The notes beneath the pieces are model-generated. The model was not told where the DNA came from, did not search any database, and saw only the letters and a program-made list of their open reading frames with translations. Made by a program: the position numbers and the translations under genes. Of a DNA stretch of 64,000 nt, positions 13,522 to 36,238 are shown piece by piece (the first letter of the stretch is position 1; each line of letters begins with the position of its first letter). Source of the DNA: Amphiscolops sp. MND2022 (Eukaryota); the NCBI GenBank assembly GCA_964187785.1, contig OZ076412.1:31372001-31436000 (forward strand), given 5' to 3'.

Positions 13522-14817
13522 AAGATGCGAACTTGCCCCTCGTCAACATCGTTCCTCAGGGTGATTTTTCTTGCCACAAGTTCCACACTCAGGGTAAACT
13601 TTCTCTGAGTCGGTTTGCCTTTTTGGGCATCCTTCTCTTTCTTCTTTTTAGGTTTCTCACAGTCTTTGACCATGTGGCCCTTTTCTTTGCAGTAATTGCA
13701 GGCGATGTCAGATGATAGTCCATTGGGGAGAAGGCATTTGGCCTTAGATGTCAAGGAAGTCATCGTTGCCATAGGTAGGCCGTCTGACTCTTCAAGATGG
13801 GCCACACATTCGTCGTAAGAGCCGTTTTCAAGTCTGGCCATGTTGACTGATCTTTTTAGTTTCGGTGGCAGTTTTTGCGGCGGAGACTGTCAATCATTTT
13901 CTGAGCATTGTCGCCAGTTGCTTTTTCTGCCCCTTGATTCCGTTCTTCGAGGAAGTTTGGTAGCTTCATCGTGTTAGGATCGAATACCAAACGGTGCCAT
14001 TTATGACTTGAGACTCTGGTTTGACGTATGTACGCCTGAAAATGACTTTGTCTGTTTGCCGTGCTGATGTTTCTGAACGTTTGTATCGCTACTTTCCTAA
14101 GAAGTGAGTGGAAGTGATTGATTTTCATCTGTTCAGACGTTTCTGACTGCATCTTGATCATCGTATGAAATAAATCCTCAAACAGCTCAAATTTCTCACT
14201 TTTGCCATCGAAAGTCATCGTGTTAGAGTTGACTGGGCGGATAGTGAGCTGTTGGACGATTCTGGAGATTTGTCAACACGTCTGCAACTCTGTTATTTGG
14301 GTCTTGTACGGCCACTGGGGGAGTTTGTTCTGTTGCAGGCAGGGTGGCGCGAGGTGATCATTGTGGTCACGAGGAGGTTGATTGAGTGCAAATCGCGAAG
14401 GGGTTCGTCTGGTATGACAATCGAAAATCTTATTTAGAGATTCGCTGTCTCCTGTCACCATGTCATGAGTACTGTCTAGGTCTTCATTTCTGTTTGGAAT
14501 CCTATGACACTCTTCTCTAGAGTCGCTTCTAAACCTGTGATCCAAGGCTTCTTCAGATGTACATTCCAGTTTTCTAGCCGTGCCTTCCCATCTTCTTTCA
14601 GGCATATGTCCTTGCTCGGATTTCAGAGTAGCTTGTATCTGAGGCAATGTTTGATCAACAATTGCCTCGTTTATGACTCTCTGAATCTGGGAACTCAATT
14701 TGCTCATGAAATCACTCAATTCGAATAAAGGACTGTCTAACATTATGTCTAGGTTTTCAATATCTGAAAGCATGTCAGCCTCTCTTGATTTTTTATTGTT
14801 ACTTTTATGGTTGGCAT
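13522..14817 (-). pseudogene. Ty3/Gypsy-type gag remnant (paralogous family, MLSDIENLDIML N-terminus)
   Basis: MLSDIENLDIML, FDGKSEKFELFEDLFHTMIKMQ, HKWHRLVFDP, MARLENGSYDE.VAHLE, CNYCKEKGHMVKDC and CGTCGKKNHPEERC on the minus strand; truncated after the second knuckle. Confidence 0.8.
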
Positions 14818-14866
14818 GAAGAATTTCCCATTTTAATATTTGAATTATATCGGAAAACCAATATTT

Positions 14867-14958
14867 TGAAAGTGTGTGAATGTCAGTAAGGTATATCAAA
14901 TTATGTCCCTCTCAGGAAAGGTGCAGGTTTATATAGTCCTGAGAGCGTGACATTCACA
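14867..14958 (-). mobile_element. Very short LTR-like segment (~92 bp) between an A9 polypurine tract and a PBS-like TGG
   Basis: Minus strand reads A9 (14967-14959), TGTGAATGTCAC, CTATATAAA, CA (14867), AAATAT, TGGTTTTCCG (14860), then gag ATG at 14817. Nearly the same start (A-run, TGTGACTGTCAC) is seen at 30324-30306. Confidence 0.5.
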
Positions 14959-15686
14959 TTTTTTTTTACAAATTTAATTCAGTAATAATACCTATTGGTG
15001 ACACGTGATTATCATTTTCAGTAGCACCTTTGTATTGCACTCGAGTATCTACATCAAAGCTTTCAAGGAATTTAACTCAAAGTGGTTCAAACATATTTGA
15101 AGAAACTGCTCCTAAACAGTAAACAATTACAATCAACAAAGCAGCAACTGTAATTGGGATATTTGACATATGCGTCAACATTCTTAACCACGTGCCGGCA
15201 CACGTGGCCAGGTGAACATGCAATTAAACACATCATCGATTTTCATATTTTTAAAATTCGAACTAGAACGGCCTGAGTTGGCCATTGTACTCAAGTTGGC
15301 CATGAAGTCTTTGCCAGAATTGTCTCAAAGACAGTATATTACAAAAAGCATCAACAAGCAACAAACTTATACATTACGTCCTTTAATCATAATAGCACAC
15401 GAAAGCGGGCAATTTACACACTCTGTGGCCAAAGGCGTACTAATACTTACGCGTAACAGAACATCATGTCTAATGAAAGGGTGAATTGGCCGTTTGACTA
15501 GCTTCATTTAAATGGCAGCTTTTGTTGAGCCAATTAGCCGTAATCGGCATATTGGAGTAATACTTTAAACTAATACCACAAATACTGCGCTCGGATTGGT
15601 TGTTTATCGAATGGAAAACAACGACTCCGTAAAAGGACGTTTCCCCATTTGAACACTTTTCCTTTATACTGCATAATATTCTGCTT

Positions 15687-15932
15687 TCAACTTACAATCA
15701 TCAATCTTTGCATTACATTTACAGTAATATTGATCATCCAGCAAAAGTAAACAGACGAACAGTACAAAAAATCAAATAATATTTTAAAGACTGGTGAATG
15801 ATAGATTAGGTTCCAATCTAATTTTTGTAAAGTTTCAGTATATTGAAAATATGTTGCAGCTTCTTGTCCGACCGTTGACAATGTTATACTTGTTCCGTCA
15901 CAGGCGGTAGCCTGCCACAGATACAAAAACAC
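15687..15932 (-). pseudogene. C-terminal remnant of accessory ORF Z homologue
   Basis: WQATACDGTSITLSTVGQE aligns with SQAAACDGSLITTTADGQE of ORF Z at 31320-31420; both lie ~1 kb upstream of the same PPT/LTR start. Confidence 0.55.
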
Positions 15933-16229
15933 CGTTTAAATGTCTCAAACAACTAAAAAAGTATCCCAATAAAGGTGGTGAAATTGGCCACAGAATGAAT
16001 AGTGTGCTCAAAAGATTTTCATATATTAAATACAAAAACAGAAGGAAAACTGTCTCATATAGAAATCACTGTTCAAACAACATTTTCAACTGATGCTTAG
16101 GAATTTAATTTTTTCTCTCCACATATCATATGGAAAAGAAAAATGATTGAAACAGTCGCGCCTTTTTCCCTAAACCTTGCCATGTTCTATTTTTATACCC
16201 AATTTGAAGTGTTTCACCAATTGAAATCA

Positions 16230-19200
16230 ACCGACGTAAACTTAGTTTCACGCGATGAGTAGTTGAAGAGATTTTTGGAGACTTTTGGATGACCCTAAGC
16301 ACCCCAGAGTAACCAAACAGTGACCCCAAAAGTGACAAAACAGTGACAAAAATATCGAAAACTCCGTTTTTAAGAATTTTTCGTCAAACTTTCTATAAAT
16401 TTTGTGTATTAGAACGTTAAAAACGTTCAACAACGAATGAAGTCTACGTCCTCAAGAATTTTGGGAGAAAAATGCAGTTTTGTAATGAAAAATTCCGACA
16501 AAATGGCCCCAAAAGAGCCAAAGAATACAACGTTTCTACTGCTTTTGACTTTTTAACGCAATTTTTGTGAAATAATCCAAACGTTCGTGAATCGAAATAT
16601 TGGAATCGTTCAAAATTAATTGAATCTGTTGTCCAGGAGGCTTTTGAAGAGGCGTTTCAATGTTATGTAGAAATATGACTTACTTCCACACTGAAAATTT
16701 AAAAAAAATCTTTCCCGGTTAATGTCCCTTCTCATACAATTTGTATCCAAATTTGAAGCTTAATATTGGTTATAATGTTCAAAACATCCAAGAACGAACT
16801 ACCTAGCTACGCGTATGCTTTTTGTTGGCAAAGCGTCAGTGTTTTGCATCAACTGTTCTTTAGAATGACCCCAGAGAAAGATTTTGTAGAATAGAACTTT
16901 GATATCGTTTAACAACAATTGAAATCGTTGTCCAGTTGTCTTTTTGAAAAGAAAAAACAAGGCTTTAAAAGGAATGTGCATCTATTTGACCCCAAGAACG
17001 TCGTACAAGCCTCGAACGGCTCAAGACGGCGCCCAGCAGAAGGTTCAAAAGAGGAAACATTTTTAACATGCAAAAAGACACCATTGTTGGAATTTCATCG
17101 ATTTTTCAGTGCTAATAAAACCGAAGGGATATGCAAAAGTCTCAAAAATTCATTTTTTCCCAACCGGAGGCAGCAAAAAAAACTATCTCGTGAAGGAAAA
17201 AAAAACAAGAAACGAAAAATTCAGGAACAAAATTCGATATTTTTCTGAAAGGAGTCCTTTAACTATTGCTCGCAAAATTTTGGTTTCTTATAAAAATTGA
17301 AGGTTTCAGAAAAAGTCGTTTAGTTTCGAAAAAACGCCGTCTTCAAAAACAAGACGCATTTAATCCATTGTTTGAAATACCCGCAATTCGTTATATCCGG
17401 TTTGCGCTAATTCAGTTTTGTTCCAAAAGAAACTAAAGGGTTGATCCTTGTGTGACATTGAAAAATTCACGAAAAAACGTAATATCTGGTAAACCTTATA
17501 TCCGGAATTCGTTATATCCGGTTTGAGTTATATACGATATGGGTTGCGTTATTGTCGAAGGAGGAGACTCCTTAGCACTTTTTTCAGTTTTGAAAAAGTC
17601 TTCAAAGTATGTTTTATCCGGTATACGTTACAGCCTGTCAAGCTGATACAATGTGTCACTTCGTCCTTGAAAAAGTTTTGGAAAAAGTCAGTGCTACAGT
17701 CGTCTGTTTCAACGAACGCGCCGACTAAAAAATTCAACGAACGCGCCGAGAGTTTCCCTTTCATGTCGCTTTTCAAACAACTGTTTTCTGAAGAAGATTG
17801 TTCGTTAGACGATTCAAAACAATCAATGACGAATAACCTAGTTATGTAAATAGAAATTGGAAGGGAAAGATGCCGTTGTTGCATTAGAAGCTCTTCAGAA
17901 TGACACCCAATGAGTCTGGAATCAAAACAGGTTCTACTTTTTAACTGTTCTTTATGGAAATGTTTTGGAGTCGCTGGAATGTTTCGAGAGTTACAATGTA
18001 AAACATGTTCGACAACGAGAGCAGCTGAAATCCAGTTGTTTTTTTTGCAGAGATACTTGCAGATTTGTTCTTGGAAATTTCCTCCGAGTGACCCAAAATA
18101 TTAAAAAATTTCGAACATTTTTCTTCAAAATGTATTGCTTGTTTGTGACAATGCAAAGCAATGCAGTACGCCCTTTTGCTGAAGTTTTTGTTGTTTTACA
18201 GGTTGAGCAATATCTCAAAATGACCAGAAGAAGTCGAAAACACAAACATTCTCGAACGAAAATTGAGTTGTTCTTTGAACATTTTATCTTCCCGTATTAT
18301 TTTTATTATTTTTATTGTTTCAAGAAAAAAAAACATTCAAAAGCAAGTAAATGCGATGTTTTGGAGGCTCTTTCCTTGTCAATTGCAGTTTCTTGATAGA
18401 AAAAACCCGCGAAGTGACCCTAAAATACTCAAAGAGCTTGTATACACTTTTGGACAATTAAGGCAATTTTTTGTGAAACGTTGACACGTTTCGTGGCTTA
18501 GAACTTTGAAACCGTTCGACAACAATTGTAATAAGCGTCCCGTGAAATTTTGGAAAGATATTTCACGTTTTCAATGAAAACATGCTGCAAGTTGACCACA
18601 AAAAAGACGAAGAACTAACGTTCTTCCAGTTTTTCGTTTTTCTTGAATGAGCTAGCTATGAAGTATGACTGTTTCGGGAAAAAATCGCAGTATTTCGCCT
18701 CGGAAACATTTCGAGAAGACCACGATGATTGAATTATTGAAAAACAAATTCGTTCTTTTAGCGTTTGTTCGAAAACTTTTAAGTTTCGTATGTTAGCAGC
18801 GAAAACCTTCGACAGCCAACCAATTGGTTATCCAGTAGGTTTTTTGGAAGTCAATTGCAGTTTAGTGTTAGAAAAGACTCTCAAATGGAATCCTGTTTCG
18901 GTGGAAACATTCAATGCTTTTCCGCATTTTTGGCAAACTTTACGACATAGTTGATACATTTCGTGAGCAAAATTGTTGGAAAACTTGAGAATACAAACTA
19001 GCTATGCGGTTTGTTTTTTTGATGCGAAGTTTGCCACTCTGATCTAAAAAAATCCAAGTTCAAACTTTCGATCTTTTTCTATTAAGTTTCTGGAAAACTT
19101 CAGAGAGATTCGGCGGATTAGGTTCTCTAAAAAATCAACAAAGAATTGAGTTTTCCTTCAGTAGTTTTTTGTAGGAATAACAGTAGTTTGTGTTAAAATA

Positions 19201-19600
19201 TTGCCCCAAAAGATCAAAAAGTTGTCAAAATATTATCTGGACGGAATAATCAGCTATGCAGTACGCTTTTCTAAGGAGAAATTTGCAGTTTTCTAGGTAG
19301 AAAAGTAACCACATAATGACCCGAAATCCAAACGGTACAGACGTTTTATGCAATTGGGACGTTTAACATGTTGTAAACTTTCAACAGCGGGGATCTCAGT
19401 ATGCAGTAGGAATTTGGAACAAAAAGGTTTACAGTTTCTGTTCTATAGGTTTCTCATAATGACACCAAAGTTGTTGAAAATATCGAAACTTTCCTCATAT
19501 CGAGGTTTTAGTGACGTTTTCTGTAAAAATGAAAACAATTTGCTAGGTAAGGTGCTTGTATCCACATCGTTCGACAACAATTAGGTATTTAGTGTGCTCT
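16230..19600. repeat. AT-rich complex interspersed repeat with ancient internal repetition
   Basis: Recurring motifs TTCGACAACAATT, GCTATG(C/A)A, AATTGCAGTTT, TGACCC(A/T/G)AAAT at irregular spacing; 16270-16330 resembles the reverse complement of 60645-60692. Confidence 0.35.
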
Positions 19601-20229
19601 TGATTTGAGTGCTTCCTTTTTTTCGAACTTCTATGCATTTTGATAGTGCATTGGCTATCAACAATGAATACACAAAAGCCGACAAAATAGGTGTTTGGTG
19701 TGTTCTTGAAGTGCTTCCTTGTGAAATGGAACGACATTATTCAAAAAGTGTCAAAACTTTCTCCGTCAAACTTCTATGCGTTTTCATAATACAATGACTA
19801 CTCTTGAGTCTCAAAAATATATCATTGCTAGAACAGTGCGGACGGAAAATATCTCGGTGGTCGGCGGGCGTCTTGTTATACGCCAAATGGTCCCGGAGAA
19901 TTATCAAAACTTTCGATGAGCCTTAAGCGGGCGCGACTTTGTACGTCTGAAGGAATCAAAAAATCACTGCACATCTCTTGGAGATGAAAACATCCAGGAA
20001 AGTCGTCGCTTTTCAACCTCGCTGTTGAAATTTTCAATATATAAACATTGTCACAGTTTTGAAGTTAGTCGTAGAAAAAGATACAATACTTTCAAATGTT
20101 CAAAAACACGAGAAATGTACAAAAATTGACAGTGCCCTAGTCGATATTGCTTTAGGTTTTTACATGGTGCATGGAAACATGCAGTCTAATTTTTTACAAA
20201 CCATGGAAAAATCATGGAGCCTGCATGGA

Positions 20230-20592
20230 AAAATTCTGTAGGATTACATTGCAGCTTCCACTATTTCAATTAAAACTGAAAACATTTTCACTTCACCACC
20301 GCGATCAGTTTGTTTTCACGCGTAAGTTTCTCAAGTAAGCACATTATGTAATCACCGTTAGTCAAATAGCACGCTGAATATATATGACACTTCTTTGAAA
20401 CTTATGTGACTGAAGTTCATTTACCTTAAATTTGCGGTAAAAATGATAGGGTCTCAGCTGCTTTCAAAATCAAAACGGCGTCTTAATGAAAGCTGAAAAA
20501 CTTTGCGGCGCAGAAATGCCGCCAAACTTACGATGCATCTTTTAGGCAGCTTGATAAAGTTAAAATCGTTTTAATGCATGGACGTTTGAAAA
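20230..20592 (+). mobile_element. Diverged partial copy of MITE family A
   Basis: Colinear similarity to 6490-6835 (ATCACCG..TCAAATAGCACGCT, GACTGAAGTT, GCCGCCAAA, GCAGCTTGATAAA); termini not recognisable. Confidence 0.6.
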
Positions 20593-20635
20593 TTTTATAG
20601 AATCTTGGAAAATTAGCTTGGTAACCTACAAGCCG

Positions 20636-21140
20636 TGAACGGCCAAAGTCGGTGCCATATCTAAGGCTCAAAATTGAAAAGGGGGGACCCTTCGGGCTTT
20701 GTGAAACTCAGCTGCTTGCAAAAAATGAAAAAAATTGAAGGGGAGCCTTTGGGGACATGAAAAATTCCCAAAATATTTTTTAATGAGATTATTCAACAGT
20801 ATAACAGTGCCGAAAAATGTAAAAGGGGGACCCTTTGCGATTTTTTTGACATCCATTGTGTTGCAAAATATCGAAACAAATCAAGGGGGGACCCTTCGGT
20901 GCAATCCAAAAAGTTTAAAAAAATCTCATAGTGCCGAAAAAAGTGGGGCCATGTGGGGATTCTTAGTTTGAGGTTCTGGACGTCTGTTTTGATTTTTTTC
21001 GTTTTGGACGCGCTTCTGAGGTTGGAGTTGTTGAGGTTTGAAATTGTTGAGGTTTGAAATTGTTGAGGTTTGACGTTGTTGAACAAATGAACAAAAAAGT
21101 GGACCCACTGTAAGTGTCGGGCACATTTTCTACTAAAATG
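20636..21140. repeat. Interspersed repeat built of AAGGGGGACCCTT-containing units
   Basis: Motif recurs at ~20680, 20741, 20822, 20883; reverse-complement motif GGGTCCCCCTT near 51070 suggests a second family member. Confidence 0.55.
21030..21082. repeat. 16-bp tandem repeat GTTGAGGTTTGAAATT (~3.3 copies)
   Basis: Unit starts at 21030, 21046, 21062. Confidence 0.85.
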
Positions 21141-21420
21141 CGCCGACTAAAACATGTAAAACGTTAAAGCAGTTTCAACCAAGTTGTGAACATTTCATGC
21201 GGAATGTTTTGTGTTTCTCAACGACTTTGAGTGTTTACAGAACTAGACTCGCTTCAGCTCACACACCTTAGACAAAACAGATTGCTGCGGATTTAGTTTC
21301 AATTCAATAAATCAAGTTGGCAAGAAAATTGAACCAATTAGGATGCTTAGTTACAGTTCAAAGTGTCTCAAGAGTGCTGAGAAAAGGGCCCAAGGCGACT
21401 TCACACTCACAAGGGTGAGT

Positions 21421-22701
<1,281 letters not shown>

Positions 22702-22880
22702 CTAAAATATAAAAAATCTTTCAGCCTTTGAAAAGTCAAGCGCAACATTTTGAAAATGTTCAAAGTTCAAAAAATTGAAAACTCGTGCTATTATGAAAAG
22801 CGAATCTCCAAAAATCCTCTTGGAAATGGAAAAAATTTCAGAACGTGGAAAGGGATTTGAAGAAACTACGAAAAACTTAC
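22702..22880 (-). other. TUBB: Beta-tubulin intron (179 nt, phase 0, after codon 19)
   Basis: GTAAGT donor at 22880 and ...ATTTTAG acceptor at 22702; splicing restores MREI...GAK|FWE. Confidence 0.95.
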
Positions 22881-22937
22881 TTTGGCTCCGATTTGGTTAC
22901 CGCACTGACCGGCTTGCAAGTGGACGATTTCTCTCAT
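22881..22937 (-). CDS. TUBB: Beta-tubulin, exon 1 (MREIVHLQAGQCGNQIGAK)
   Basis: Exact 57-nt canonical beta-tubulin N-terminus with MREI autoregulation motif; ATG in CCAAAATG context; not in the ORF track. Confidence 0.97.
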
Positions 22938-25445
22938 TTTGGCTGGCTAAGAGCTACGGATTTTAGATATCTAATTTGAACTAAGATTCTGCACTAAATG
23001 ATCGAATGATTAAATTGGCCGCAAGCTCCAATTACGTTCAGAGCCTCGTGAAAAAATATTGTGTCCAGGCGATGTTGCTAGTCAACAATGACAGGTTGCC
23101 AACCAACCAAATCATTCTGTGTGCAGTAAACCATAAGCTCAGCAGCACATAAAACATGTGAAGATAGCGAATGAAACTCAACATCTTAACCACATCTATA
23201 CAATATAAGGGTTTAACAATTTGTGCTCAATTAAGTTCGGTAAAAAGTTACTGATTGAAGTGTTCAGTATGAAGTTTTGTGCGTGCAGCTTTCATTTTTC
23301 GTTGCATATTCAATGGCAAGTTTCAACTTGTTTCTGATTCTGACTTCAGCATTGCAAACGTATACATTTAAACCAGAAATGTACTTAAAAACGCCACATA
23401 ATTTTGATCACGCCACATTACGAAAGAGGCGAACCAAGCTTTGGATCTCGAGCTGAAACCAAAACATACTTTAGCTAATTATTGATAATGATTCAACGAG
23501 TCAAAAACTGACCATATTTGGGGACCATCATCAAGTTCCACAGGTCGATGATTCTTGAAAAAAAAACATGACAAGCATGAAACCATCAAAAAAGCCAAAA
23601 AACAGTGCCAAATGACATCTTACGGACGTTTAAGATGTTTAGGTGAATGGAGATAATCAACCTAATCCTTTTTAAATTTCTACGCAATAAGTAGTTTCAG
23701 ACCTTTTTTCTGTGAATTCAGAGCGAAAGGTGTCATTTATTCCGGGTCGTTTGTTTGATGCGAGTCCAAGTGTTGGAACGAAGTTTGAATATGAACGTTC
23801 CTGGTCTTCGGAAATATTAGTTCCTCTAGTTCCATGCTATATCCATGTTTTTTTCATAGGGTGAAAAGAATTATTGTAAGCAGTTAAATTTCAAAAAGTT
23901 TTACTAAAACGAAATTTATGCAGCGGAAAACAATGCATCCTAAAATTTTTTATACACAGTAAAAAATAAATGGTTTCTAGACACAAAAGTGTCAATTTCT
24001 ACGGTATTGCTCAACGTTAAGCTCCAAATTTATCTATCAAGCTTTATCGAAAAAAGTTGTGTGATGATGTGAGAAATAGTAGAGCGGCTGTAAGTGAAAC
24101 TAGCAAAAAAATGGACGGAATATAAGTAAAAAATAGCGATAAGAGTAAAAGGGGATAATCAAGTGCCTTGATTAAATTATCTTTTTTCAACATTTTGGCA
24201 CAACCCATAACTCTGTAAATCGGGTTATCGGCATTGTAGCACGAAGTGATATGTAAATTACTTGAGAAAAACTAGTTCAATTCATTATTTGATAACTAAA
24301 TTTGCCGATACGAAATTGTAGTTTTATTCTTCAACAAAAATGTTTGTTTCAAGAATAATAATTTGTCCCTTTTTTGATCGTTTGAGCCAGAATTCTCAGC
24401 GCAAAATTGAATTTCTAGATTGAAAGCGACTCGAACAAAATACATTTACCGTTTACCTACGCAAACTTGAGTTTCCTATTTATTATAGAAAATGATCAGA
24501 ACTAATCTCTGTTGTGCTCTTTTTCTAAGTAAAGGTTTTTTCACATATACTTATCATCCTCTTTAAAATAGAATTTTGGAGTTCTTCCGAAGGAAAGTGG
24601 TTAAAATGACCCAAACATCGAATTCATCCAAAACTGCAATGAATCAAATTTATCTGCACCGAAGAATATCATCAACGATTGAATCTTCGTCGCTTATTGA
24701 TTTCAGAGCGGGAAACATCGAGGCGGTCAGCTGGGTTCTGGTTGTAAAATTAGAACGTTCAAAGTTTTTAGTCGGCATTGTTCGGCTGAGTCCATAAAAA
24801 GTTCGGGACACTTGTTCGGAAACAAGTTTTTGGACGTATCACTGAAGGTGCATTTGTACGGACTCATGTTTGTACAGCGCTTTCAAAACAAAACTATCCA
24901 CGCGTTGAATGGACGTCTGTAATGTAAGAAGATGTGACTGAAGTGGCTATTAAGTTCACAGTACCTGCCTCCAAAAAGACACATATGCCATAAGAACACT
25001 TAGTGCTAGTGCTACTTACGGTACAGTGACAATTTTAGTTTGTGTTTACGCTAAACTCGATACTTAATTTGGATTAGCGATTCCAGTTTTAATTCAACTT
25101 TATTACCCTTTTGGTCAGTTAATTACATTTAATAAATATATTTTAGTCTCCAAATAATTAAATGATTTGGATCAGTTTAACTTTTTTTCTACTAAACAAA
25201 GTGAACAAAACATCTCGCGAAATACTTATAAGAAATTTAAACGGTTTTTGGAAGAAATTTTTTCAAGATCGCAATCACTTATCAGCAGTGTTCCGGATAT
25301 GATGGAACGCTTGCCAAGATCCATTGCTGATCACTTACCGAGATACTTTTGCGTTTATCTTGCACTATTGGCATAGCTATCATCTTGCAAAAACTTCCCA
25401 AGAGTTTCCAAATGTACCTTTATCTCGACTAGGGTTTCATCCCTT

Positions 25446-26416
25446 CCCTAGTTGAGGGTGCCGGAAATTTTACATGCTGCAGGCTTGCATGCAGGGTAAT
25501 TTTTTAAGAAACCTAGAAAATTCAGTAAGGTTTCGGTGGTAAATCTTGTAGAATTACACTGCCATTTCCACAACTGCAATTAAGTTTGAAAATATTTCCC
25601 ACTTATTTTACGGACACGATCACGATGTATTCACACATTGATTTCTCAAACACTCAACTGATTTAATCACCGCTTCTCAAATAGGACGCTGAAGATGACG
25701 CTAATTTGTTGTTTACATTGTGAATGAAGTTAAACTGCATTGAAATGGCGGCAAAATTGTTGACGTCTCAGCTGCATTTAAAAATGGAACTGATGCATAT
25801 TGAAACTTGCAGAACTTCGCGGCTTGAAATTGCCGCCCAAACTTTGATGATTTTTTAATGCAGCTTGATAAACGTTGGCGACAACAGGGAAATATTAACG
25901 CATTAAAGTTTGCGTAAGATATTTAGAACTGCTGGCAACATTAAAGTGGTGTCGGGTCACAAGTCCGAAAGAATAAAATTAAATTTTTATCGTCCAATAA
26001 GATTTCAGAAATCCAGCATAAGAAATACTTGGCACTGTATAATTCTCTGCAATCTGATTGGCTGACGCAGGCGGACCGGAACGAAGTCCGATCAAAGATT
26101 TTAAAAATGAATTTTTCAATTTCCCCTAGTCAGCTATGTTCACATAGTCCTAGTGCCCTAAATACAGGAGCGAAGCGAAGCGGAGTGACGTGCCATATGG
26201 ACATGCCTCAATGTTGCTACTTGGCGAAGGGAGCAAAGCGACCGAGCCATACAACAAATGTGAAGCATTTTTTCGGACTTGTGCAACCCAAATTCATTTT
26301 CCGACTTGTGCAACCCAAATTTATTTTCGGACTTGCGCAACCCAAATTCATTTTCGGACTTGTGAATAGCCGCCCATTAAAGTACATGCAAAAAGTTCAA
26401 GCATGTTCAACAAGGG
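25446..26416 (+). mobile_element. MITE family A copy carrying a nested insertion
   Basis: Termini CCCTAGTTGA / TTCAACAAGGG; 2-bp TSD TT (25444-45, 26417-18); colinear with 6402-6949 once 25948-26374 and one TSD copy are removed. Confidence 0.85.
25948..26374. mobile_element. Mutator-like MITE (427 bp) nested in MITE A
   Basis: 9-bp TSD CATTAAAGT (25939-47, 26375-83); imperfect TIRs starting GG with shared core TCACAAGTCCGAAA; 27-bp subterminal tandem repeats at ~26270-26364. Confidence 0.8.
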
Positions 26417-26439
26417 TTGTTCAAAATGCTTGAACATTC

Positions 26440-26572
26440 AACGTTCTACATATTTTTGAAGGTTGGCAGCACTTTTTACAATGATTTACTGCAACTCTTA
26501 CGCAAAACTTTCAAGCGTTACCTTTTCCCTAATCCATTCGACCTTTATCAAGCTGATTGAAAGATTCATCAC
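26440..26572 (-). mobile_element. Partial inverted copy of MITE family A 3' part
   Basis: Similar to 5840-5950 (GCAGCACTTTT, CTCTTACG.AAACTTT, TTTATCAAGCTG.TTGAAAGATTCATCA). Confidence 0.55.
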
Positions 26573-28448
26573 GTTTGAGAGTATGAGTCATACTGCTCTT
26601 GTTGACTAATTACCGCCAGTCTGGTCTTAATTTCGAGATTTTCAAACTTAGTTCTTTCAATATGGACTCTGTTTGCATAGAATTCCTTGTCAGGTGACCA
26701 GTGAAATATAACCAGTAAATAAAGATCGTGCTCCTTTATGAAGCCAGCTAAGGCACTGTATGGGACGGTTAGCATGTGCGCTTTTGGACAGAAATCTCCA
26801 AAAGCCATAACATTTATAACCAACGCAATATATTTTTTCACATCAGTTAAAGAAACAATGTTGCAATTTTTGTCAACTGGCCTTGAAGAAAGTTGTTGTC
26901 ACGTTTATGGCACAAAATTGAAAGATGCGACAGGAAGAGAAAGTGGTAAAAGCCTTTTTAAAAACCGGATTCAATTAGAATTTATCGCCAAGTAATTTAC
27001 TCAGCCCAGATTTCAGAGCGGCCGCAGTTTGCCCAAGCAATTTGACGGCGGCCGGTGTACCAACAGAGGAGTAATTGAAAATACATGAGGACATATTTGT
27101 CAAACAGTGCCGTATTATCTTTCCCGCGGAGGTGAGGTGAAAGCCTAGGAAGCGTCTGACGGTACACAACTCTCGCCCCAGGCAATTAAGTGGGGCGACA
27201 ATTCACCTGAGTCACCACAGCGTACCTCGCGCAACATAAAGCAACCACGGATGGTACAGAAAAAGATTCAATCAAAGCATCCTCAGCTCTATTGCCATTA
27301 GTTTCTCAATTTCACCTCTTTGCCCAATTCAATTGCACGTTGCTACCAATTAACTCCGAGATTCCGTCAACTTTTGGGTCACAGCTGCTATTGCATTATC
27401 AAACAATTTTAAAAAGACAACATTCATTGGTGAGTTTCACGTGTTTTCTTGGATTGATACCACTTGCATTTTTGCAACGATCTCGCATGACTCATGTTGA
27501 TGACAATTTTTGTTGGTCTTGCAAGAGGTTCCTATCCAAGCTGCATGCTTCCAGTTCAAGATTTTGCAAGAGAAATATTCACAGCATTTTTTCATAATAG
27601 CTCAAGAAAATTAATGCCCATCTATAATTAATGACTAATCCAATCACGGCTCAATAAACTATTCAAACTGTTCCTCCATTTAAATCGTTGTATACCTCGT
27701 GTTATTATCGTGAAAAACAGTATTATCGTATAGAACCAAAGGAACATTGAACTTGACTGAATTCGATTTTACAATATCCCTGGCAAGAGCTGAATAATTC
27801 GGAAGTAAGATCAGTGTGTCGAGTACAGGGAATTTTTTGTCGTTGAATCCGTTAATTCAGAAAACGGCAAGACGCGAAATTTCGACACTGCTTAAGTATG
27901 AACTTCCGCCATGGGACGATGTCGTTGGAAGAAATCAGAAACAGTCGTACAATGGCGAAAAAAAATCAAACATTTTAGGTTTCAAAAAACAATTCTCTTG
28001 AAAGCAACAACGAAACGGTCAAAGTAGACATTTTGATGAAGTAGGTTTGTCTTCAGAAAAATGTCATCAAATTTGCCCAAACGGGTTAGGAGTCATGAAC
28101 GAACCTCTGATGAAATAAAAAACTGTCACACAGTCCAGAAACAAAAGCTAGAGAGCTTTGGTTTCCACGTGCTCTAAAAATATTGAGAAAAGATCATCCA
28201 GCGCGGATGTCGAACGCACGTAATCTTGCTTCCCAGGTCCAGTCCGAAAGTTCTAAAATAACGAAAAACAAACAGCCTTAGTCAAGACTGCTGGAACATG
28301 TAACACGCTACAGGCCTTCATTCAGTGAATTTTTTTAATAAAACTCTGAAATATCAGTAGGCAACCGGTGGTAAATTTTGAGAATACGCTGAAGTTTCCG
28401 AAATAGCAAATTAAAATCCGTAAAAATATAATATATTACGGGCATGCA

Positions 28449-28677
28449 CAGGGGTGTTCAATATTTCATTCGAATATTTAATATTATTATTGCTTAAAAC
28501 AAATTAATTTATTTTCACGGTGGAAAAATAAATAATTTTCTTATTTTTTTGCTAAAATAATTATTTTTATTTTAAGAGGTCCAAAAATATTTATTTTTAC
28601 TCATTTAAGTGTAAAAATAAATTATTTTTTATTCATTATAATTATTCTTGCCCATAATTATTTATTGAACACCCCTG
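28449..28677. mobile_element. hAT-type MITE (229 bp)
   Basis: Perfect 15-bp TIR CAGGGGTGTTCAATA and perfect 8-bp TSD GGCATGCA (28441-48, 28678-85); AT-rich interior. Confidence 0.9.
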
Positions 28678-29470
28678 GGCATGCAAAATCACATTTTCAA
28701 GTAGCATAGTAGCATCCCAATTTTGACGCTAGTTCGCAGTTTATAACGTAACTGAAATTATTTTGCATCGAAATTGGCCTAAATCTAATATCTTCTCTGT
28801 TGAATTTGAATAAAGCACTGATGCTTATCGAAAACTGTGGAATAGCTAGGCTTAAAATTGTCTGTTTTTTGTTGAATTTTTCAACTAGCCTGTTAAAAGC
28901 CCTACATAAAAGGAAATATTATTGGCTGAAAGTTTCCCAAAGAATGTTGAAAAATTATAGTAAAAGTTGTCGACAACCTTTGAAAACATCAAAAAAAATT
29001 CAAACAGTTTGATCAAGGGAGGGGTTGACCTGTGTGAACTAACACGTGAAATTCTGCTCTCCGAAGATAAAATACTGTTGAATTTCTGAAAACCACCAGA
29101 TTTGTCAACTTTTTAGGTAATTGAACGCAAAAGCTAGCAAGTGGAATTTTTCATCTTTAACAAGTTGAAAGATTTTCTCCTGATTCAGCAAGCGGTTTAA
29201 CTTGAACTGAATTTTGTATGGGAAACTGTCGAATTTAGGGATATCAAAAAACTGCAACAGGAGTTTCTGGACTGCTCATGAAAGTTAAGTGGCAAAAACC
29301 AGGGATGGTGGAACTAAGTTTCCTTTTCCAAATGGGCTTCAGTCAGAAGAAATTGAGACTTGAAGGTTTGCCAAGCAGAAAGGTTTTTCTAAGCGCAATT
29401 GACTTTGATACGGGAAAAACTTTTGGGTGGAAGTTACTTTCCTTAGAATGGACTCCGAGCAAAAGTTTAA

Positions 29471-30066
29471 TTACGTGATTGCAATGGACGTGTCGGAGGC
29501 ATTGTCTAAGGGTCCATCATTAAGACGGTTTTGGACAAGCTCACTTTTCGAATTATTTCTGGCCTTTTCATTTCGCAGAACTTCGGTATTCGTTTCCGGT
29601 CCCTCGGCCGGAACGTTCCATCCTGTCTGTGTCATGTGTCTCGATCCGGCCATGATGGCATTCTGGATTTGGGGTAATACCTGACTACTGATGGCATCAT
29701 TAATTGCCCTCTGAATCTGAACACTGACACTATTCATCATCTCATCCATCTCCCTAGATGTCCTATAGTTCAATTCATTTGATAATCTGTTGATCTCAGC
29801 ACTAGAGTTCGCACTTGTAGAATTTTGACCAAGACCGGCGTTGTTACTAGATCCGATCTCTCTAGGATTAAAGTAAAAATTCGCTTCATTGTTCTCGAAG
29901 AGATTGCTAATGGTACTTTCAGGTCTTCTAGCAAGACTGCCATTCTCACTATCTTCTCTCTCTCTGAGCGTCGCTCACCTAACATTATGTCTAGGTTTTC
30001 TATGTCTGAGAGCATTTCTAGTTCTCTCTATTTCCTAGCTTTCTTTTGCTTTCTAGTGGTAGGCAT
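29471..30066 (-). pseudogene. 5' part of Gypsy gag (same family as 13522-14817), frameshifted and truncated
   Basis: MPTTRKQKK..MLSDIENLDIMLG and SVQIQRAINDAISSQVLPQIQ match the 14.3-14.8 kb gag. Confidence 0.75.
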
Positions 30067-30105
30067 TGAAGGATATCCGAGCGAGAATATTTAACTTAAC
30101 TCTGT

Positions 30106-30305
30106 NNNNNNNNNNNNNNNNNNNNNNNNNNNNNNNNNNNNNNNNNNNNNNNNNNNNNNNNNNNNNNNNNNNNNNNNNNNNNNNNNNNNNNNNNNNNNNN
30201 NNNNNNNNNNNNNNNNNNNNNNNNNNNNNNNNNNNNNNNNNNNNNNNNNNNNNNNNNNNNNNNNNNNNNNNNNNNNNNNNNNNNNNNNNNNNNNNNNNNN
30301 NNNNN
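30106..30305. other. Assembly gap (200 N)
   Basis: Run of N; true size and contiguity unknown. Confidence 1.
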
Positions 30306-31319
30306 GTGACAGTCACATTTTTTTACATATTTAGCAAGTAATAAGTACAACAACATACTCAAAATGCATGGTATCAAAATATCCCACTTATATTCCACAG
30401 TCCTCAGGTATCACGTGAGCAACATTTTAAAGGGTATTAAAGTTTACGCCGCAACATCAAACAAACTATTGTATTCTAATAAATACTTCCATCTTAGGAA
30501 TGTCAACAAATATTCTTCGCTATGGCAGGTATGCAGAGATGGCACGTTCCGCCACGCGAGCACTGCTGAGTTTAACTAAGCATAAGAATATATGATTACA
30601 TGTAAGGGCCAACATAGTACTATGGCATAATCCGGATACTTAGTCTAACATTGAAACAGTTATGGCAGTCAGGGCTAACTCAATTTAGTACGGGTGGTAT
30701 TGCACTTTACACATTCTGGTCTGAATGGGCTATTTGCCTCATATCAAATAAACATCATTGATTTCTCGGTGCATAGCCTTAAAAGGCAAATAATACCAAG
30801 TCTGGGGTATTAGTTGATAATTACTGCATAGAAACAATTACTTAACGCGTAGAATACAAACACATAAACACTGGTTAACTATAAGTATATATAACCTCAT
30901 AGTTGCATCTTCACTTGAAACAGCAGTAATCGGCCGTTTGACTGAAATACTAATCAGAAGTAGAGGAGGTGCGTCATTTGGCGTTATTCGGCCAATAATA
31001 TATAAAAGCGTCAGTGAAGTAACAAATGGTGAAAACTGATCAGACGTGACTACGTGCTCAAGTGACGTTCCGGAAAAGCACTCTACATCACTTGAACACA
31101 TTTTCTTTACTGCCTTACAGTTGTATTCAACTTGCATCGGTTTAATTTACATTTAGAGCGTCTTTTGACAAATTCTAACAACTTGAATTGGAATTACAAA
31201 AATTTTACACTTAACAAACTAATACTAGAAGCTCCATTACTAAATTGGTGTTGTATAATTACTAAGGTGTAGGACATAACATAAATGTGATATTCGTTAA
31301 AAGTTCGTTGAGCTTTCAT

Positions 31320-32104
31320 CTAAAAGAACGGCAATGTACCTTGCATGATCTCTTGTCCGTCCGCAGTTGTCGTGATCAATGATCCGTCACAGGCGGCCGC
31401 CTGTGACACTGCGGGTGCAAGGAAAAGAAAAGAACCGACGTTCAGACCATCCTCGTAAGCTTCGCTTCTCAGTCGTGTTATGTGTTCCAGCTCAATTCTT
31501 CGGGTAGATCTCTCCAGTTATCAAGCTACTCTTTCTCTTTTAATTTCCTCCACAAATCTGCCGCAAACCATACATCCTGTATAGCACACTTCACTAACGT
31601 TCTCGTACGGTTTCGTATTCTGGATGTTATATGAAGCTCTAAAGTCGAGGTCAGTTGATTGTACCAAAGGGGAAATAAGAGATGGCCCTCTTTCAATCGG
31701 CGGAGAGGACATTGGCGACTCTACGACAGGGAGCAAGGTTTTACATAATTCTATTTTCCTCTTCCCATTTCCTTTGGGGGAGCGTGACAAAGTTTCTCGT
31801 CAAAAAAAGTGGCCTTGAAATTAGGCGTTACCAGCGGTCTCGACAGTGATGTGCTTGGCCCTGCGACCATTTCTTTCTCTATACTGCCCGTCGTCATTAC
31901 TCTTCCGCCAATCAACATAGGACTCGTAACCACTTCTTTCTCGATACGGGCCACTAACTCTTCAGTATCTGATGAAAAGTCAGACTCCCTTTCTCCAGAT
32001 TGGTCCTCTTCCCCACTAGAAATGTAGATTACTGAATCATCTGAGGCGTCAGAGCTGACATCGCCCATGTCGAACAGTTTTCTTGAGAGGTTAAACTTCT
32101 GCAT
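31320..32104 (-). pseudogene. Accessory ORF Z (~260 aa reconstructed), unknown function
   Basis: 31751-32104 frameshifts at a T-run (~31800) into 31521-31790, which continues in frame past TGA TAA to ...YEDGLNVGSFLFLAPAVSQAAACDGSLITTTADGQEIMQGTLPFF* (TAG 31320-22). Acidic N-terminus; CMVCG (CxxC) motif. Confidence 0.65.
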
Positions 32105-32958
32105 GATAAATTTCCTAGCAATTTTGGCGAATTGAGCATCGACTTGTGTTCAGCAAATTCAAAATCAGAATGAATTGGTCGGTTGACTCGCTTTAGGCCA
32201 TGTTAGGATGTTTCCCGGGATTCTCGATTTGGCGGTAGAAACATTAGGCAACTATCCTAAGTCGGCCTAATTTTTCCTGAATGGAACTCCACTGATTGCC
32301 GACGGCCTTGGAAATCCCGATGTTTACCCCTCATCAACACCATCATCAGAAGAGGCGTGAACAGCGCTTGGGTCGTTAATATCAAATAGACTCGTCTCAA
32401 GTGGGTAATTAAGAGGTTGCTTGAGGTCAACTAACGGCACGCTACGGTTAGCTTCTTCCAGAATGGCTCCAGCCAATCAGACACGTTCTACGATAAAATG
32501 AATAATAAATAATAAAATGGTGAAAATTAAAAATCTTAAATATTTCAAAATGGATGAAAATCTAACTAAAAAATAACAAGTCATCAAAGCAAAACGGCGA
32601 AACGAAACAGGGTAAACGGCCATAATCGGCTTCAAACTAACTAAGTTGTAAATAACGAAAAACCTTCTGTACATTTCGCTGGCAGACTCCATACACAGTT
32701 TTAACTTTGTAAATAACCATAGAATATTAGTCAGGTAAATTTTCAACCAGCCATCTGACGATTGTCTTCAAGTCGATCACAAACTTCAATATCATGTCTT
32801 CAAGTTCAGGTCGGTCTGGATTTTCGTTTTTGAACTAATTTAACTTGATCAAGTCTAAATTTTGTTCACAAGTCGCTTCCTGTTTCCATCAATTGGCACG
32901 TGATGACACACTTCATTCAAATTTACAAAAGACTTCCGGAAGGTTTCTAAAGCGTTGA

Positions 32959-34067
32959 ATGGATTTCTTTCAAGGAAGCTCACCTTCAAATTCCATATCA
33001 TTCGGTTCAGATAAACAGGGATTTCAGTTCACTGAATGTGCACAGATACCAGACTCTGGTTTCAACACAATCCCTGCTCCAATCATGGTTCGTTCCCCAC
33101 CTCCTTTTCCTCCTATTAGATCACCCAGCAGTACTGACAGTAATGTGGAAGTCACTGCATACGCCGAAGAAAGGGCCCAAATCCACGAAGATGCACAAAA
33201 GCTAACAGGCCAACAGAAAAGCGGGCAACTTGCGGAAGATTATGAAGAAATAGAAGATGAAGAAGAAGACGAAGACGGAAAGAATGAGTCAGATAAGTTG
33301 TCTTTTGCCCATCCCAGGACCGAAGCAACTTCCCTTCGCATTCCTACTAAGGCCCCTACACCTGGTACAACTGAAACTGCTGTGGAGCTGAACTTGACTC
33401 ATTTGGAGACTGGACTCAGAGTTGCCACTCCCTCTAGAACTGCACTGCTTGATCTATTACCGGCTGTAGATCCGGTTAATGGGACGTCCCCGGCGTAATT
33501 CCTGCAAACTGAAACTGATGACAGTTCATCCTTTTGCGATGCACCCACCCTTCCCCAAGGAGAAAACAAAGTGAGATTCCCCGATGACTCCACTGGAGCC
33601 GAGGAAACCGGGGACGCATCCAGCCAAGCCAGTGGCCCAGTCCTAAAAGAATACAACCCAGTAGAGAAGAAAATGAGCCTCCTGCCAGGGAGGTAGAAGC
33701 CTTGCCCGGATCTTCCGGCTACTTGACCAATCAGACAGCGCCAACCACTTCCGCGCCGCAAGATGCAGGGTTACAGGAATTGTCTGGACGAAGTAGGGCA
33801 ATTCTGAAGCAGTACTTTGATGAAGATACTGAAGCTATAACTTTCCCTTTAGGCCATCGAACAGTACCCTTCACAGAACCTATGTTGTATCATCTCTTTC
33901 GTTTCCTAACTGACGAGACCGTGAGAATGTCCTACACCGCCATAGAACGAATGGTAATAGGAGCGGTCAGGGGAACACCAGTCACCTCTGGGTCTAGAAT
34001 TGACCACTTCAAGACTCGGTATAGAGCCCAAATACCAAGGTCAAGGCTGTTTTTGAGCCTCAGATAG
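32959..34067 (+). pseudogene. Accessory ORF Y (antisense to pol), copy A
   Basis: Track ORFs 32959-33498 and 33702-34067 are separated by one TAA and a 5-nt insertion that are absent in copy B. Confidence 0.6.
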
Positions 34068-34220
34068 GGCGTCGACTTATGCAGTTCCTGGCTTGCTCCA
34101 ACTTTCATCCGACATGTTCACTTCAACTACTTCAACTTCTTCCTTACTTGGTGACTCGTCTGCAACTTTCATTTTGTCGGTGTAACCACAGTAGTCTGCT
34201 TTTCAACACAGCTCCAATCC

Positions 34221-34490
34221 TCACTTGTAGGAGACTCCGAACCGTAAGTTCATTTCTTGATCAATTGCATCTTCGAAAATTCTGACATATTCTTCTCCTG
34301 TGACGTTCCTAGCCCCTCTTCCAAATTCCCTCCTGTTCTTACAATTGAGTGATGTGTTGAGCACTCGTTGAAGATCATCGTAACATGCAAGCCATCGTAA
34401 AAATGTTACGTAAACGTTTGAAATAATTGAAAACTCAAATGAAATAGCCCTCCTTGCCACGATGAATGTTCTTTGACAAAATGAAGCCAT
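34221..34490 (-). CDS. Accessory ORF X (89 aa), copy A; unknown function
   Basis: ATG-initiated ORF just downstream of integrase, open in all three copies; core YVTFLRWLACYDDLQRVLNTSLNCKNRR. Confidence 0.45.
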   Translation of the reverse strand: MASFCQRTFIVARRAISFEFSIISNVYVTFLRWLACYDDLQRVLNTSLNCKNRREFGRGARNVTGEEYVRIFEDAIDQEMNLRFGVSYK

Positions 34491-35468
34491 TTGTTTAATT
34501 CAGTTCACTGTTACCAGTTTTCGTTACCAAGTTTGTCATTGATTCTTTTTGACTTTGTTGTCTAGTCCAAACCTTTTAAGTTTAAAGTACCAATGCCGTC
34601 AAAAGTTCAAAATTTCATCCTTTCCGAATGCTTATTCAATTCAAAGGTCAAAAGTTTTAACCGAATTACATGACCATCTTGCATGACTGCAAACTTAGTG
34701 AACTTTTAGGAACCCAATCACCTTTTTCCCGGCCTTTTGCAGGTAGTTAACTGGTGGCTTAAGATTGGTTCTTAGGTTTAGTCCCCGCTTTGGGTAGGCT
34801 CATTAGAACAAAAATATTCAGTTTGAGCAGTGACTCATATTCAACATTTGTGATAGTCTTTGTCAATGACTGAGGAATGAGAGTCAACAAATTCACCTCA
34901 GCTGCTTAATGAGAACTGCTGTTCAGTTCACTTAACTCTTTGAGTAATTTAATAGTCTTTCTGTTCAACCTCAACTTTCTGTTCAACTCTGAATTAACTC
35001 TTGTTTCTTATTCATCTTGTTTCCTGAGTTCGCGAGGCGTGCACTAAACACCTCCTATCAGCACTTGTTTCACTATATCCCGCTTGGATGCAACTACTGA
35101 TTTCTCGGGGTTTAGTAAGAACGTTATGGTGGTACTCGATTCACTGTGATCCTTGCCTTTCATCTTGGAGCCACGCGTCCAATTTAAAATTAAAATGGAT
35201 GAATCGACAACCGGGTTGAAATCATCATCGAATTGCAGCTTTGGGTCAATCTTTTTGTGTGTCTTGTAATCCTTCCGACGTTTGTTCTCATTGCGAATGA
35301 AACTCTAGATAGGCCCTAGGTTTTTCCTACTAACACCACCTTTCTCTCCAATCGAAGTTTTCTAGCCATACTTTCTACTAGCCCAATCACCCAGCGGTTT
35401 CTCACCGGCGAATAGTGTTTTTAACGTGATTACTTTTCAAATTGCCGCTGTCGGATCTGCTTTATTCT

Positions 35469-36238
35469 CTGTGGAGCTGAACTTGACTCAATTGGAGACT
35501 GGACTCAGAGTTGCAACTCCCTCTAGAACTGCACTGCCTGATCTATTAACAGCTGTAGATCCGGTTAATGGGACGTCTCCGGCGTATTTTCTGCAAACTG
35601 AAACTGATGACAATTCATCCTTTTGCGATGCACCCACCCTTCCCCAAGGAGAAAACAAAGTGAGATTCCTCGATGACTCCACTGGAGCCGAGGAAACCGG
35701 GGACGCATCCAGCCAAGCCAGTGGCCCAGTCCTATAAGAATACAACCCAGTAGAGAATGAGCCTCCTGCCAGGGAGGTAGAAGCATTGCCCGGATTTTCC
35801 GGCTACTCTACCAATCAGACAGCGCCAACCACTTCCGCGCCGCAAGAAGCAGGGTTACAGAAATTGTCTGGACGAAGTAGGGCAATTCTGAAGCAGTACT
35901 TTGATGAAGATACTGAAGCTATAACTTTCCCTTTAGGCCAACGAACAGTACCCTTCACAGAACCTATGTTGTATCATCTCTTTCGTTTCCTAACTGGCGA
36001 GACCGTGAGAATGTCCTACACCGCCATAGAACGAATGGTAATAGGAGCGGTCAGGGGAACACCAGTCACCTCTGGGTCTAGGATTGACCACTTCAAGACT
36101 CGGTATAGAGCCCAAATACCGAGGTCAAGGCTGTTCTTGAGCCTCAGACAGGGCGTCGACTTATGCAGTTCCTGGCTTGCTCCAACTTTCTTCCGACATG
36201 TTCACTTCAACTACTTCAACTTCTTCCTTACTTGGTGA
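35469..36238 (+). pseudogene. Accessory ORF Y, copy B (5'-truncated)
   Basis: 35426-35737 and 35786-36238 are in the same frame, separated by a single TAA at 35735-37. Confidence 0.6.

Follow-up and report, generated by a model that had tools for sequence, protein, structure and literature searches.

ORF Z, a conserved non-env accessory gene before the 3' LTR of a family of animal retrotransposons

Introduction

How animal retrotransposons evade host silencing is poorly known, and non-env accessory proteins with a tested role are few, CERV among them. The 64,000-nt stretch of DNA analysed here (the window) holds two decayed LTR elements with a similar peptide in the env position. Does this peptide belong to a gene, here called ORF Z, and what could its protein do? 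The initial annotation had read the peptide pair as protein-level constraint on a non-env accessory gene.

Results

Two broken copies next to LTRs

Both peptides were found again, and both read from the minus strand: SQAAACDGSLITTTADGQE spans about 31406-31350, and WQATACDGTSITLSTVGQE, which matches it at 11 of 18 residues, spans 15917-15861 (tblastx E 0.099 within the window). Searches with a profile of the ORF Z family delimited two copies:

31320..32104, minus strand: ORF Z copy B, full extent, broken
15852..15918, minus strand: ORF Z copy A, reduced to about 20 codons, which also carry the hairpin seen in copy B (8/9 pairs)

Copy B matched the profile at 32104-31754 (iE 2e-42) and 31823-31323 (iE 2e-70). 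A frame change near 31770-31780 and two in-frame stops at 31523-31518 interrupt this copy, in which both the acidic, serine-rich N-terminus and the CMVCG motif reported earlier are present. Copy A matched at 15914-15852 (iE 0.003). The 82-codon open stretch at 15690-15935, previously assigned to ORF Z, is homologous over about 20 codons only, and the DNA above about 15960 is unrelated. By itself this remnant would not suffice for the claim of a gene (tblastx E 0.1). Furthermore, the peptide match is also a DNA island (21/24 nt) lying on a hairpin, so that the window alone gives no proof of protein-level constraint, and the in-window pair cannot carry the argument first built on it.

The flanks had been described as barely alignable apart from islands. 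The island GGCCGTTTGACT is real (15488 and 30932), but homology between the 3' flanks runs through their whole length (global score 115 vs 15 ± 7, maximum 32.5, in 50 shuffles). As reported, both copies stand about 1 kb before the same PPT/LTR start: an A-run and TGTGA.TGTCAC follow 0.9-1.0 kb on, at 30317 and 14958.

30318..31319, minus strand: 3' non-coding region of copy B, with an A-rich PPT-like run at its end and the conserved island at 30932
29491..30317, minus strand: LTR of element B, starting with TGTGACTGTCAC and ending in GACA; spans a 200-N gap and holds the 5' part of gag
14959..15851, minus strand: 3' non-coding region of copy A, homologous to that of copy B, with the island at 15488
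14461..14958, minus strand: LTR of element A, holding the gag start; a PBS-like site and more gag follow
14449..14460, minus strand: PBS-like TGGTGACAGGAG, which follows the LTR end immediately and lies within the gag frame
13600..14448, minus strand: degraded gag of element A, with a capsid-like DUF1759 (E 8.5e-5) and a CCHC knuckle (E 0.0016), both matches under Pfam's curated cut-off

LTR hallmarks (A-run, TGTGA.TGTCAC start, GACA end, candidate PBS after the LTR) were thus found, and with them the features of an LTR retrotransposon: terminal repeats with a PPT and a PBS-like site, and a gag with a capsid-like domain and CCHC knuckle. In element B, the gag homology to copy A stops at the GACA junction and unrelated DNA lies beyond, which identifies this LTR as the 3' one. 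The LTR of element A, followed by a PBS-like site and more gag, is apparently shared in a tandem arrangement. A TGG site lies at 14460, and a similar junction at 12598 on the plus strand. An 86-bp inverted repeat, TGTGAATGTCA...TGACATTCACA, at 14958 was considered as a short LTR and ruled out: gag homology ends at the GACA/TGG junction. For pol, whose PR-RT-RH-IN order and gypsy-type RT would mark Ty3/gypsy rather than BEL/Pao, there was no Pfam match in the 128 window frames or in three read-through frames of 7900-10901, the copies being too decayed, and the "env position" therefore rests on the 3' LTR and its junctions. ORF Z lies between the antisense ORF Y and this LTR, about 1 kb before it and sense to gag.

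ORF Z is a gene under purifying selection

The original idea of a non-env accessory gene conserved in the 3' (env) position is supported by outside relatives, and not by the in-window pair: their ORFs, about 260 aa long, stay intact across 20-70% identity and lack a transmembrane segment, and both comparisons at DNA level gave a pN lower than pS. The relatives form 616 protein clusters. The 156 full-length representatives have a median length of 270 aa and a median identity of 29%; in them, the frame is open over 240-345 codons at identities down to 20%, the four cysteines occur together in 142, and the [ST]PxSP box and SQAAACD in 143 each. Member sequences number 1,073 in 74 clusters; adjacency to an LTR was seen in 2/2 window copies. 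Values of pN/pS were 0.39/0.68 over 63 codons for copy B against L001, a related sequence, and 0.26/0.49 over 19 codons for copy A against copy B. The proposed dN/dS check gives roughly 0.3-0.4, from two short pairs with dS close to saturation, and conservative substitutions are modestly enriched (0.40 vs 0.32). ORF Z is a real coding gene under purifying selection with a soluble product, and its host elements are a large, old, still young-looking family of animal LTR retrotransposons.

A hairpin under the most invariant block

31383..31409, minus strand: VSQAAACDG, the most invariant ORF Z block, with a perfect 22-bp palindrome at 31386-31407

The most invariant peptide overlies a conserved hairpin or palindrome of 9-11 bp, and its invariance may therefore partly be a nucleic-acid constraint. 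Compared with shuffles, folding gave z -4.2 for one window copy, -4.4 for the other and, for L001, an unremarkable -1.2; across these three sequences 26/27 cells pair, with no compensatory change. The loop codon and the following Gly are conserved as well, and TGTGAC is common to the palindrome and the LTR start. Six of the nine stem pairs fall on first or second codon positions of S-Q-A-x-A-C-D, and identical codons encode 6/9 shared residues inside the motif vs 4/16 outside (p ~0.05, by hand). Both observations would suit a peptide conserved only through a palindrome that acts in cis as DNA or RNA, the ORF not being kept as a protein. This is highly improbable, as the frame is open in 156 proteins and positions far from the hairpin are conserved (C121, C177, C180, E204, A215 and the SP box). 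It would account for the VSQAAACDG motif but not for the gene, and for the ORF it is already largely refuted. Besides the protein, the hairpin under VSQAAACD probably adds a constraint of its own, acting in cis.

No match to known families

That ORF Z could not be assigned to a known family was borne out by the absence of Pfam and PDB-sequence matches. Neither ORF Z and its relatives nor ORF Y had a match at the Pfam cut-off, and the best PDB sequences had E 7.4 (ORF Z) and 0.16 (ORF Y). The structure model of ORF Z is weak (mean pLDDT 57.9, pTM 0.29) and confident only for helices 184-222. A fold search with it gave no match at E 0.001 in PDB or BFVD, faint Rpb10-like CxxCG-helix hits at E of at least 4, and a best VIA Z of 5.5 over 45 residues; with such a model, the lack of a match does not establish the fold as new. 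The best ESM Atlas scores, 0.79 and 0.82, are leads only. Scans for related loci found none in viral contigs or prokaryote genomes and one in metagenomes (1/173 pattern matches), and Rfam gave no match. Neither SQAAACDG nor a description of the family appeared in the searched literature, which left out Repbase, supplements and most subscription journals; a repeat-library entry may exist.

Motifs of the ORF Z protein

32003..32032, minus strand: VIYISS-acidic motif, a candidate phospho-SUMO-interacting motif (SIM) with CK2-type serines
31560..31574, minus strand: CxxCG, at the start of a predicted two-helix module; may form a zinc site together with two other conserved Cys

The strict motif [VIL][VIL]x[VIL]-S-S/D-acidic occurs in 75 of the 156 representatives, vs 1.4 expected from composition. 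All 35 members of the window's own group carry it and none of the 46 in one deep group, which have LSYQ/PSYY-SSDE instead; two other groups have only a P-I-Y-L-SS variant. The N-terminal motif fits a phospho-SUMO-interacting motif, and SUMO binding is predicted from it. Only the SS-acidic core is universal, and this core might be no more than a CK2 site. A conserved basic NLS is not clear among the relatives, and neither an Arg-rich RNA-binding tract nor a leucine-rich export signal is conserved.

Does the env position indicate an envelope? FAST-like sORF2 is a small membrane protein with a lipid anchor and a transmembrane helix, and an envelope or FAST-type fusion protein would agree with a gene sense to gag in this place. 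A 19-residue hydropathy window of at least 1.8, however, occurs in only 2/156 representatives, leaving 154 without transmembrane-strength windows (simple scale, not DeepTMHMM). By simple scales, none of 123 ORF Z proteins has a hydrophobic N-terminus or signal peptide. An MG start is found in 1/156, and the N-terminal half is acidic and modelled with low confidence. Such a fusion protein is hardly credible and is refuted unless a spliced exon supplies the membrane anchor.

The conserved Cys/His of the 156 representatives are four Cys and one His. A RING or SUMO-targeted ubiquitin ligase, with eight zinc ligands in RING spacing, was rejected on this count. Vpr, Vif and ICP0 are adaptors that take host factors to a ubiquitin ligase for degradation, and ORF Z might bring a restriction or silencing factor there in the same way. 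The small size, the predicted zinc-bound helical core, the SUMO-motif candidate and the degron-like SPxSP box would fit, and Burro elements carry ubiquitin- and SUMO-related domains (PMC6431247). With five conserved Cys/His, too few for a RING, and no ligase-binding motif recognised in ORF Z, we regard this adaptor role as doubtful.

A head-to-head partner, ORF Y

32105..32958, no strand: spacer between head-to-head ORF Z and ORF Y, 854 bp, with GG[CT]CG[GT]TTGACT at 32177
32959..34046, plus strand: ORF Y, antisense accessory gene, broken; the N-terminal ~365 codons of a family of 640-727 aa

Intact members of the ORF Y family carry a W-C-x2-C...H-x4-H zinc-finger pattern in a portion outside the window; the finger is a pattern only, without a Pfam match at cut-off. 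The head-to-head layout points to an internal promoter rather than a spliced subgenomic transcript, and makes the 854-bp spacer a candidate bidirectional promoter. Four longest-contig sizes are common to ORF Y and ORF Z matches. A complex prediction for the two proteins, run without alignments, was uninformative (score 0.00). Relatives of ORF Y appear to end at a splice-donor-like point, and the element RNA may therefore need help with export or packaging, as in the Rev/CERV reading discussed below.

Discussion

Our preferred reading, to which we give a probability of roughly 45%, is that ORF Z is a nuclear, zinc-binding co-regulator or anti-silencing protein. The protein would be mostly disordered, with acidic linear motifs: a CK2-phosphorylated SUMO-interacting motif and, in the [ST]PxSP box, a proline-directed phospho-site. 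Its C-terminus would form a small zinc-binding helical module. An internal promoter, which the head-to-head ORF Y would share, probably drives its expression. Its most likely site of action would be the chromatin of the element itself, where it would serve as a co-activator or counter silencing, engaging SUMO-marked host silencing machinery, with the zinc-finger ORF Y as a possible DNA-targeting partner. In flies, SUMO has been tied to piRNA-guided transposon silencing (10.1101/533091). An extension of this proposal, which we consider unlikely, is a two-gene cassette in which ORF Y is a zinc-finger DNA-binding protein, the phospho-SIM of ORF Z antagonises SUMO-dependent heterochromatin silencing, and the palindrome is a cis signal.

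The main rival to a co-regulator or anti-silencing protein is an RNA-export factor of the Rev/CERV kind, which we hold to be rather unlikely. Here, a phosphorylated cysteine-finger ORF Z would bind structured element RNA, for which the hairpin within the ORF Z coding sequence is a candidate, and promote export or packaging of unspliced genomic RNA. CERV has an essential phosphoserine and may have a C4 finger (PMC10309623); ORF Z, for its part, conserves four Cys and an SP box. The folding of the hairpin in the window copies and its pairing across the three sequences also agree. However, the L001 hairpin is unremarkable and compensatory change is missing, no Arg-rich tract or export signal is conserved, and CERV is a 517-aa protein, spliced to gag, with a G-like domain. 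Alternatively, ORF Z could be a minor protein of the particle or integration complex that tethers new copies to SUMO-rich heterochromatin, and so serve targeting rather than transcription. The SIM census speaks for such a tether as it does for a co-regulator, and TGTGAC in both palindrome and LTR start would suit it. With no link to gag or integrase shown, and a separate head-to-head layout that suggests independent expression, we find it improbable.

The closest known systems share parts of this picture. Plant LTR retrotransposons also carry conserved non-gag/pol ORFs before the 3' LTR, such as Grande gene23, RIRE2 and Retand TRP28 (PMC7264820, PMC11963269). These 3' accessory ORFs can be nuclear, with their own promoter, and ORF Y mirrors the antisense ones with possible DNA binding (PMC7264820). 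In contrast to the plant cases, the present element is from an animal, has two head-to-head genes, and has ORF Z in sense; plant env-like ORFs have transmembrane segments, which ORF Z lacks, and ORF Z showed no match to TRP28. An animal LTR element, Cer1 of C. elegans, likewise encodes a non-env accessory protein, CERV; this has a cysteine cluster, and its phosphoserine control may have a counterpart in the predicted phosphorylation of ORF Z (PMC10309623). CERV, with 517 aa, exons shared with gag, and H, M and G domains, stands apart from the stand-alone, largely disordered ORF Z of about 260 aa. In HCMV IE2, SIM1 consists of CIVI and then CK2 serines, an arrangement that raises both SUMO binding and transactivation (10.1101/655282). 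ORF Z has the same order, a four-residue hydrophobic core directly before CK2 serines in an acidic tract, a likeness at motif level only, IE2 being from a herpesvirus and having a DNA-binding domain of its own. Bdelloid rotifer LTR elements (PMC5408684) and planarian Burro (PMC6431247) are invertebrate elements with non-env third ORFs too; those match the known enzymes or domains GDSL, DEDDy, MATH, BIR and BCL2, whereas ORF Z matches nothing in Pfam. With errantivirus env of the F and gB types, ORF Z shares the position before the 3' LTR (PMC13524379), but it has neither signal peptide nor transmembrane anchor, and its low-confidence model predicts no large folded ectodomain.

The finding also carries a caution for reading function from the VSQAAACDG motif: an invariant peptide can overlie a nucleic-acid stem. 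The ORF Z family is deep, unnamed and present in high copy; many of its natural copies are intact, and it offers specific testable motifs, namely the SUMO motif, the zinc site and the in-frame palindrome. Its subfamilies with and without the SUMO motif are a built-in natural comparison. If the two-gene proposal is true, the elements would encode, in this cassette, a counter-defence against piRNA/SUMO silencing, which could help to explain very high LTR loads.

ORF Z copies and family

The accessory gene ORF Z occurs twice in the window, in two diverged LTR retroelements, A and B.

32104-31320, minus strand: ORF Z copy B, interrupted by two in-frame stops and by a change of frame near 31770-31780
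15914-15852, minus strand: ORF Z copy A, the sole homologous stretch

The initial annotation held that the peptide is conserved between the copies while the flanking DNA is barely alignable. A shared peptide is indeed present (11/18 residues alike, tblastx E 0.099 within the window; family profile iE 0.003 for copy A), but copy A is homologous over 15914-15852 only, the remainder of its 82-codon open stretch being non-homologous. The flanks proved otherwise: the 1-kb regions 3' of both copies are homologous end to end (score 115 versus 15 +/- 7 in 50 shuffles). An A-run and then TGTGA.TGTCAC close both regions (30317, 14958), placing both copies about 1 kb before the same LTR start, as had been proposed. 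GG[CT]CG[GT]TTGACT has three occurrences in the window (15488, 30932, 32177), every one next to ORF Z: one some 70 bp ahead of its start codon side, the others in the two 3' regions.

The ORF Z observation is real. As anticipated, it is an accessory gene, and the searches matched it to no named family: a C-half search returned 74 clusters (96 candidates, 1,073 sequences), many intact at ~260 aa, and no named relative appeared among the 120 matches listed, nearly all from ENA, of the 616 clusters (3,559 candidates) found with a profile from 13 distant members. A profile search gave 358 representatives, and one metagenome locus, L001, carries an intact relative at 26% identity. We analysed 156 of 330 retrieved representatives (240-350 aa; 174 shorter left out), which include near-duplicates and are not independent. 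Their median pairwise identity is 29%, and they form nine groups at 45% linkage. Source-sequence sizes of 456530, 358536 and 509396 are common to the window's group and deeply diverged groups, therefore a large part of the radiation appears to belong to a single host.

Conservation comes in patches, the pattern that a protein would be expected to show (residues 23-31, 0.65; 70-99, 0.25; 118-140, 0.58; 175-231, 0.56; 232-240, 0.98). The suggested protein-level constraint is supported by dN/dS of ~0.31 for copy B versus L001 (63 codons, dS near saturation) and ~0.41 for copy A versus B (19 codons).

In copy B, the codons for VSQAAACD make up a perfect 22-bp palindrome, unique in the window with arms of at least 11 bp besides one satellite-like and two T/A-rich repeats. 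The stem is preserved in A and L001: across the three sequences 26/27 cells pair, one A-U pair is replaced by G-U, and compensatory changes are absent (folding z -4.2, -4.4, -1.2). Six of nine stem pairs occupy first or second codon positions, thus a conserved stem alone would determine the greater part of the peptide. Since conservation extends to the loop residue and to the Gly after it, nucleic-acid and protein constraints may both act on VSQAAACD. That ORF Z is purely a cis-acting stretch is very improbable.

Element structure

A gag frame begins no more than a few hundred bases beyond each TGTGA.TGTCAC. Gag homology between A and B ends exactly at A's GACA|TGGTGACAGGAG junction, where B enters unrelated DNA; therefore gag starts inside the LTR, and B's LTR is a 3' LTR. 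A's LTR appears common to A and a following copy. The LTR holds approximately the first 110-190 codons of gag (29491-30317 and 14461-14958, minus strand), and a PBS-like site falls inside the gag frame. A gag start within the LTR is a Ty1-like layout, here taken to an extreme, and 3' LTRs could yield a truncated Gag peptide. LTR A starts (14873-14958, minus strand) with an inverted repeat, TGTGAATGTCA...TGACATTCACA, that encloses a TATA-like sequence. Pfam matches of A gag to DUF1759 and CCHC were both sub-threshold, and no pol was found by Pfam in 128 window frames or three read-through frames.

ORF Y, a second accessory gene, starts at 32959 on the opposite strand, 854 bp upstream of ORF Z. 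Local duplication produced three copies.

32959-34046, plus strand: ORF Y
35453-36130, plus strand: ORF Y
40222-41318, plus strand: ORF Y

This unnamed family comprises 47 clusters, and its longer members (640-727 aa) carry a C-x2-C...H-x4-H pattern, presumably BED-like, for which Pfam gave no match. Many intact relatives stop near a common FDWGEERIS stretch and differ in their tails, a pattern that could reflect an intron. Four largest-source-sequence sizes appear both among the 74 ORF Z and among the 47 ORF Y match rows, which fits linkage of the two genes in other copies.

Genomic setting

The window consists of eukaryotic DNA rich in repeats, with a GC content of mostly 33-50%. Its composition and gag fragments might suit an acoel such as Symsagittifera roscoffensis, whose genome has a GC content of 36.7%, with LTR elements making up about half of it (excerpts of PMC9911081). 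Recent segmental duplications span 32328-44446 (identity 92-97%; spacings 2.1, 5.2 and 7.3 kb), possibly in part assembly-related, and include a 136-bp inverted repeat (37944-38443). A 3.43-kb tandem duplication (98.5%) at 57922-64000 includes a 186-bp repeat array. MITE-like non-autonomous inverted repeats, 68-92% alike, lie at 5793-6950, 20135-20571, 25445-26571 and 28276-29029. Palindromic repeats rich in AAGATCTTG (44800-45012, 49715-49880) are probably ends of a DNA transposon family. Degraded frames at 1501-3419 (plus strand) resemble a non-LTR retrotransposon endonuclease and reverse transcriptase.

21421-22701, minus strand: uninterrupted 426-codon frame, beta-tubulin-like

Potential role of ORF Z

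Hydropathy reaches 1.8 in only 2/156 ORF Z proteins and an MG start occurs in one. The hydropathy argues against an env or FAST-like fusogen, in line with the proposed non-env gene, whereas the env of errantiviruses carries a signal segment as well as transmembrane ones (excerpts of PMC13524379); an env identity is hardly credible. Coding status, selection, position and the lack of a membrane anchor are the sole properties demonstrated. Non-env 3' ORFs of LTR elements are a known kind, found in plants (PMC7264820; PMC11963269), rotifers (PMC5408684) and planarians (PMC6431247; all as excerpted). No prior description of the ORF Z family itself turned up in the article texts searched.

C121, C177, C180 and C238 occur jointly in 142/156 proteins, 124 of the 156 having H159, which suggests one zinc site. 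AlphaFold (pLDDT 49.7 and 57.9) is confident solely for two helices after CxxCG. SUMO is reported to take part in piRNA-guided silencing. An N-terminal motif fitting a phospho-SIM (SUMO-interacting motif) is present in 75/156 proteins versus 1.4 expected. Its strict form occurs in 35/35 and 35/44 members of two groups and a PIYL variant in 16/17 and 9/9 of two others; a group of 46 lacks it (0 strict, 1 relaxed). The candidate motif resembles HCMV IE2, where CIVI and CK2 serines lead to SUMO binding and transactivation (10.1101/655282, excerpt); for phospho-SIMs in PML, Daxx and PIAS1 see PMC4276917 (excerpt).

Other roles for such a protein can be considered. A CERV/Rev-like export factor (CERV: PMC10309623, excerpt) is unlikely, a degradation adaptor distinctly more so, and an integration tether is more doubtful again. 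Our tentative preference, at a probability of roughly 45%, is a nuclear, zinc-binding accessory regulator. ORF Z would be expressed from an internal promoter common with ORF Y, and its product, zinc-bound in the nucleus, would engage SUMO-marked chromatin factors and may thereby keep the element active.
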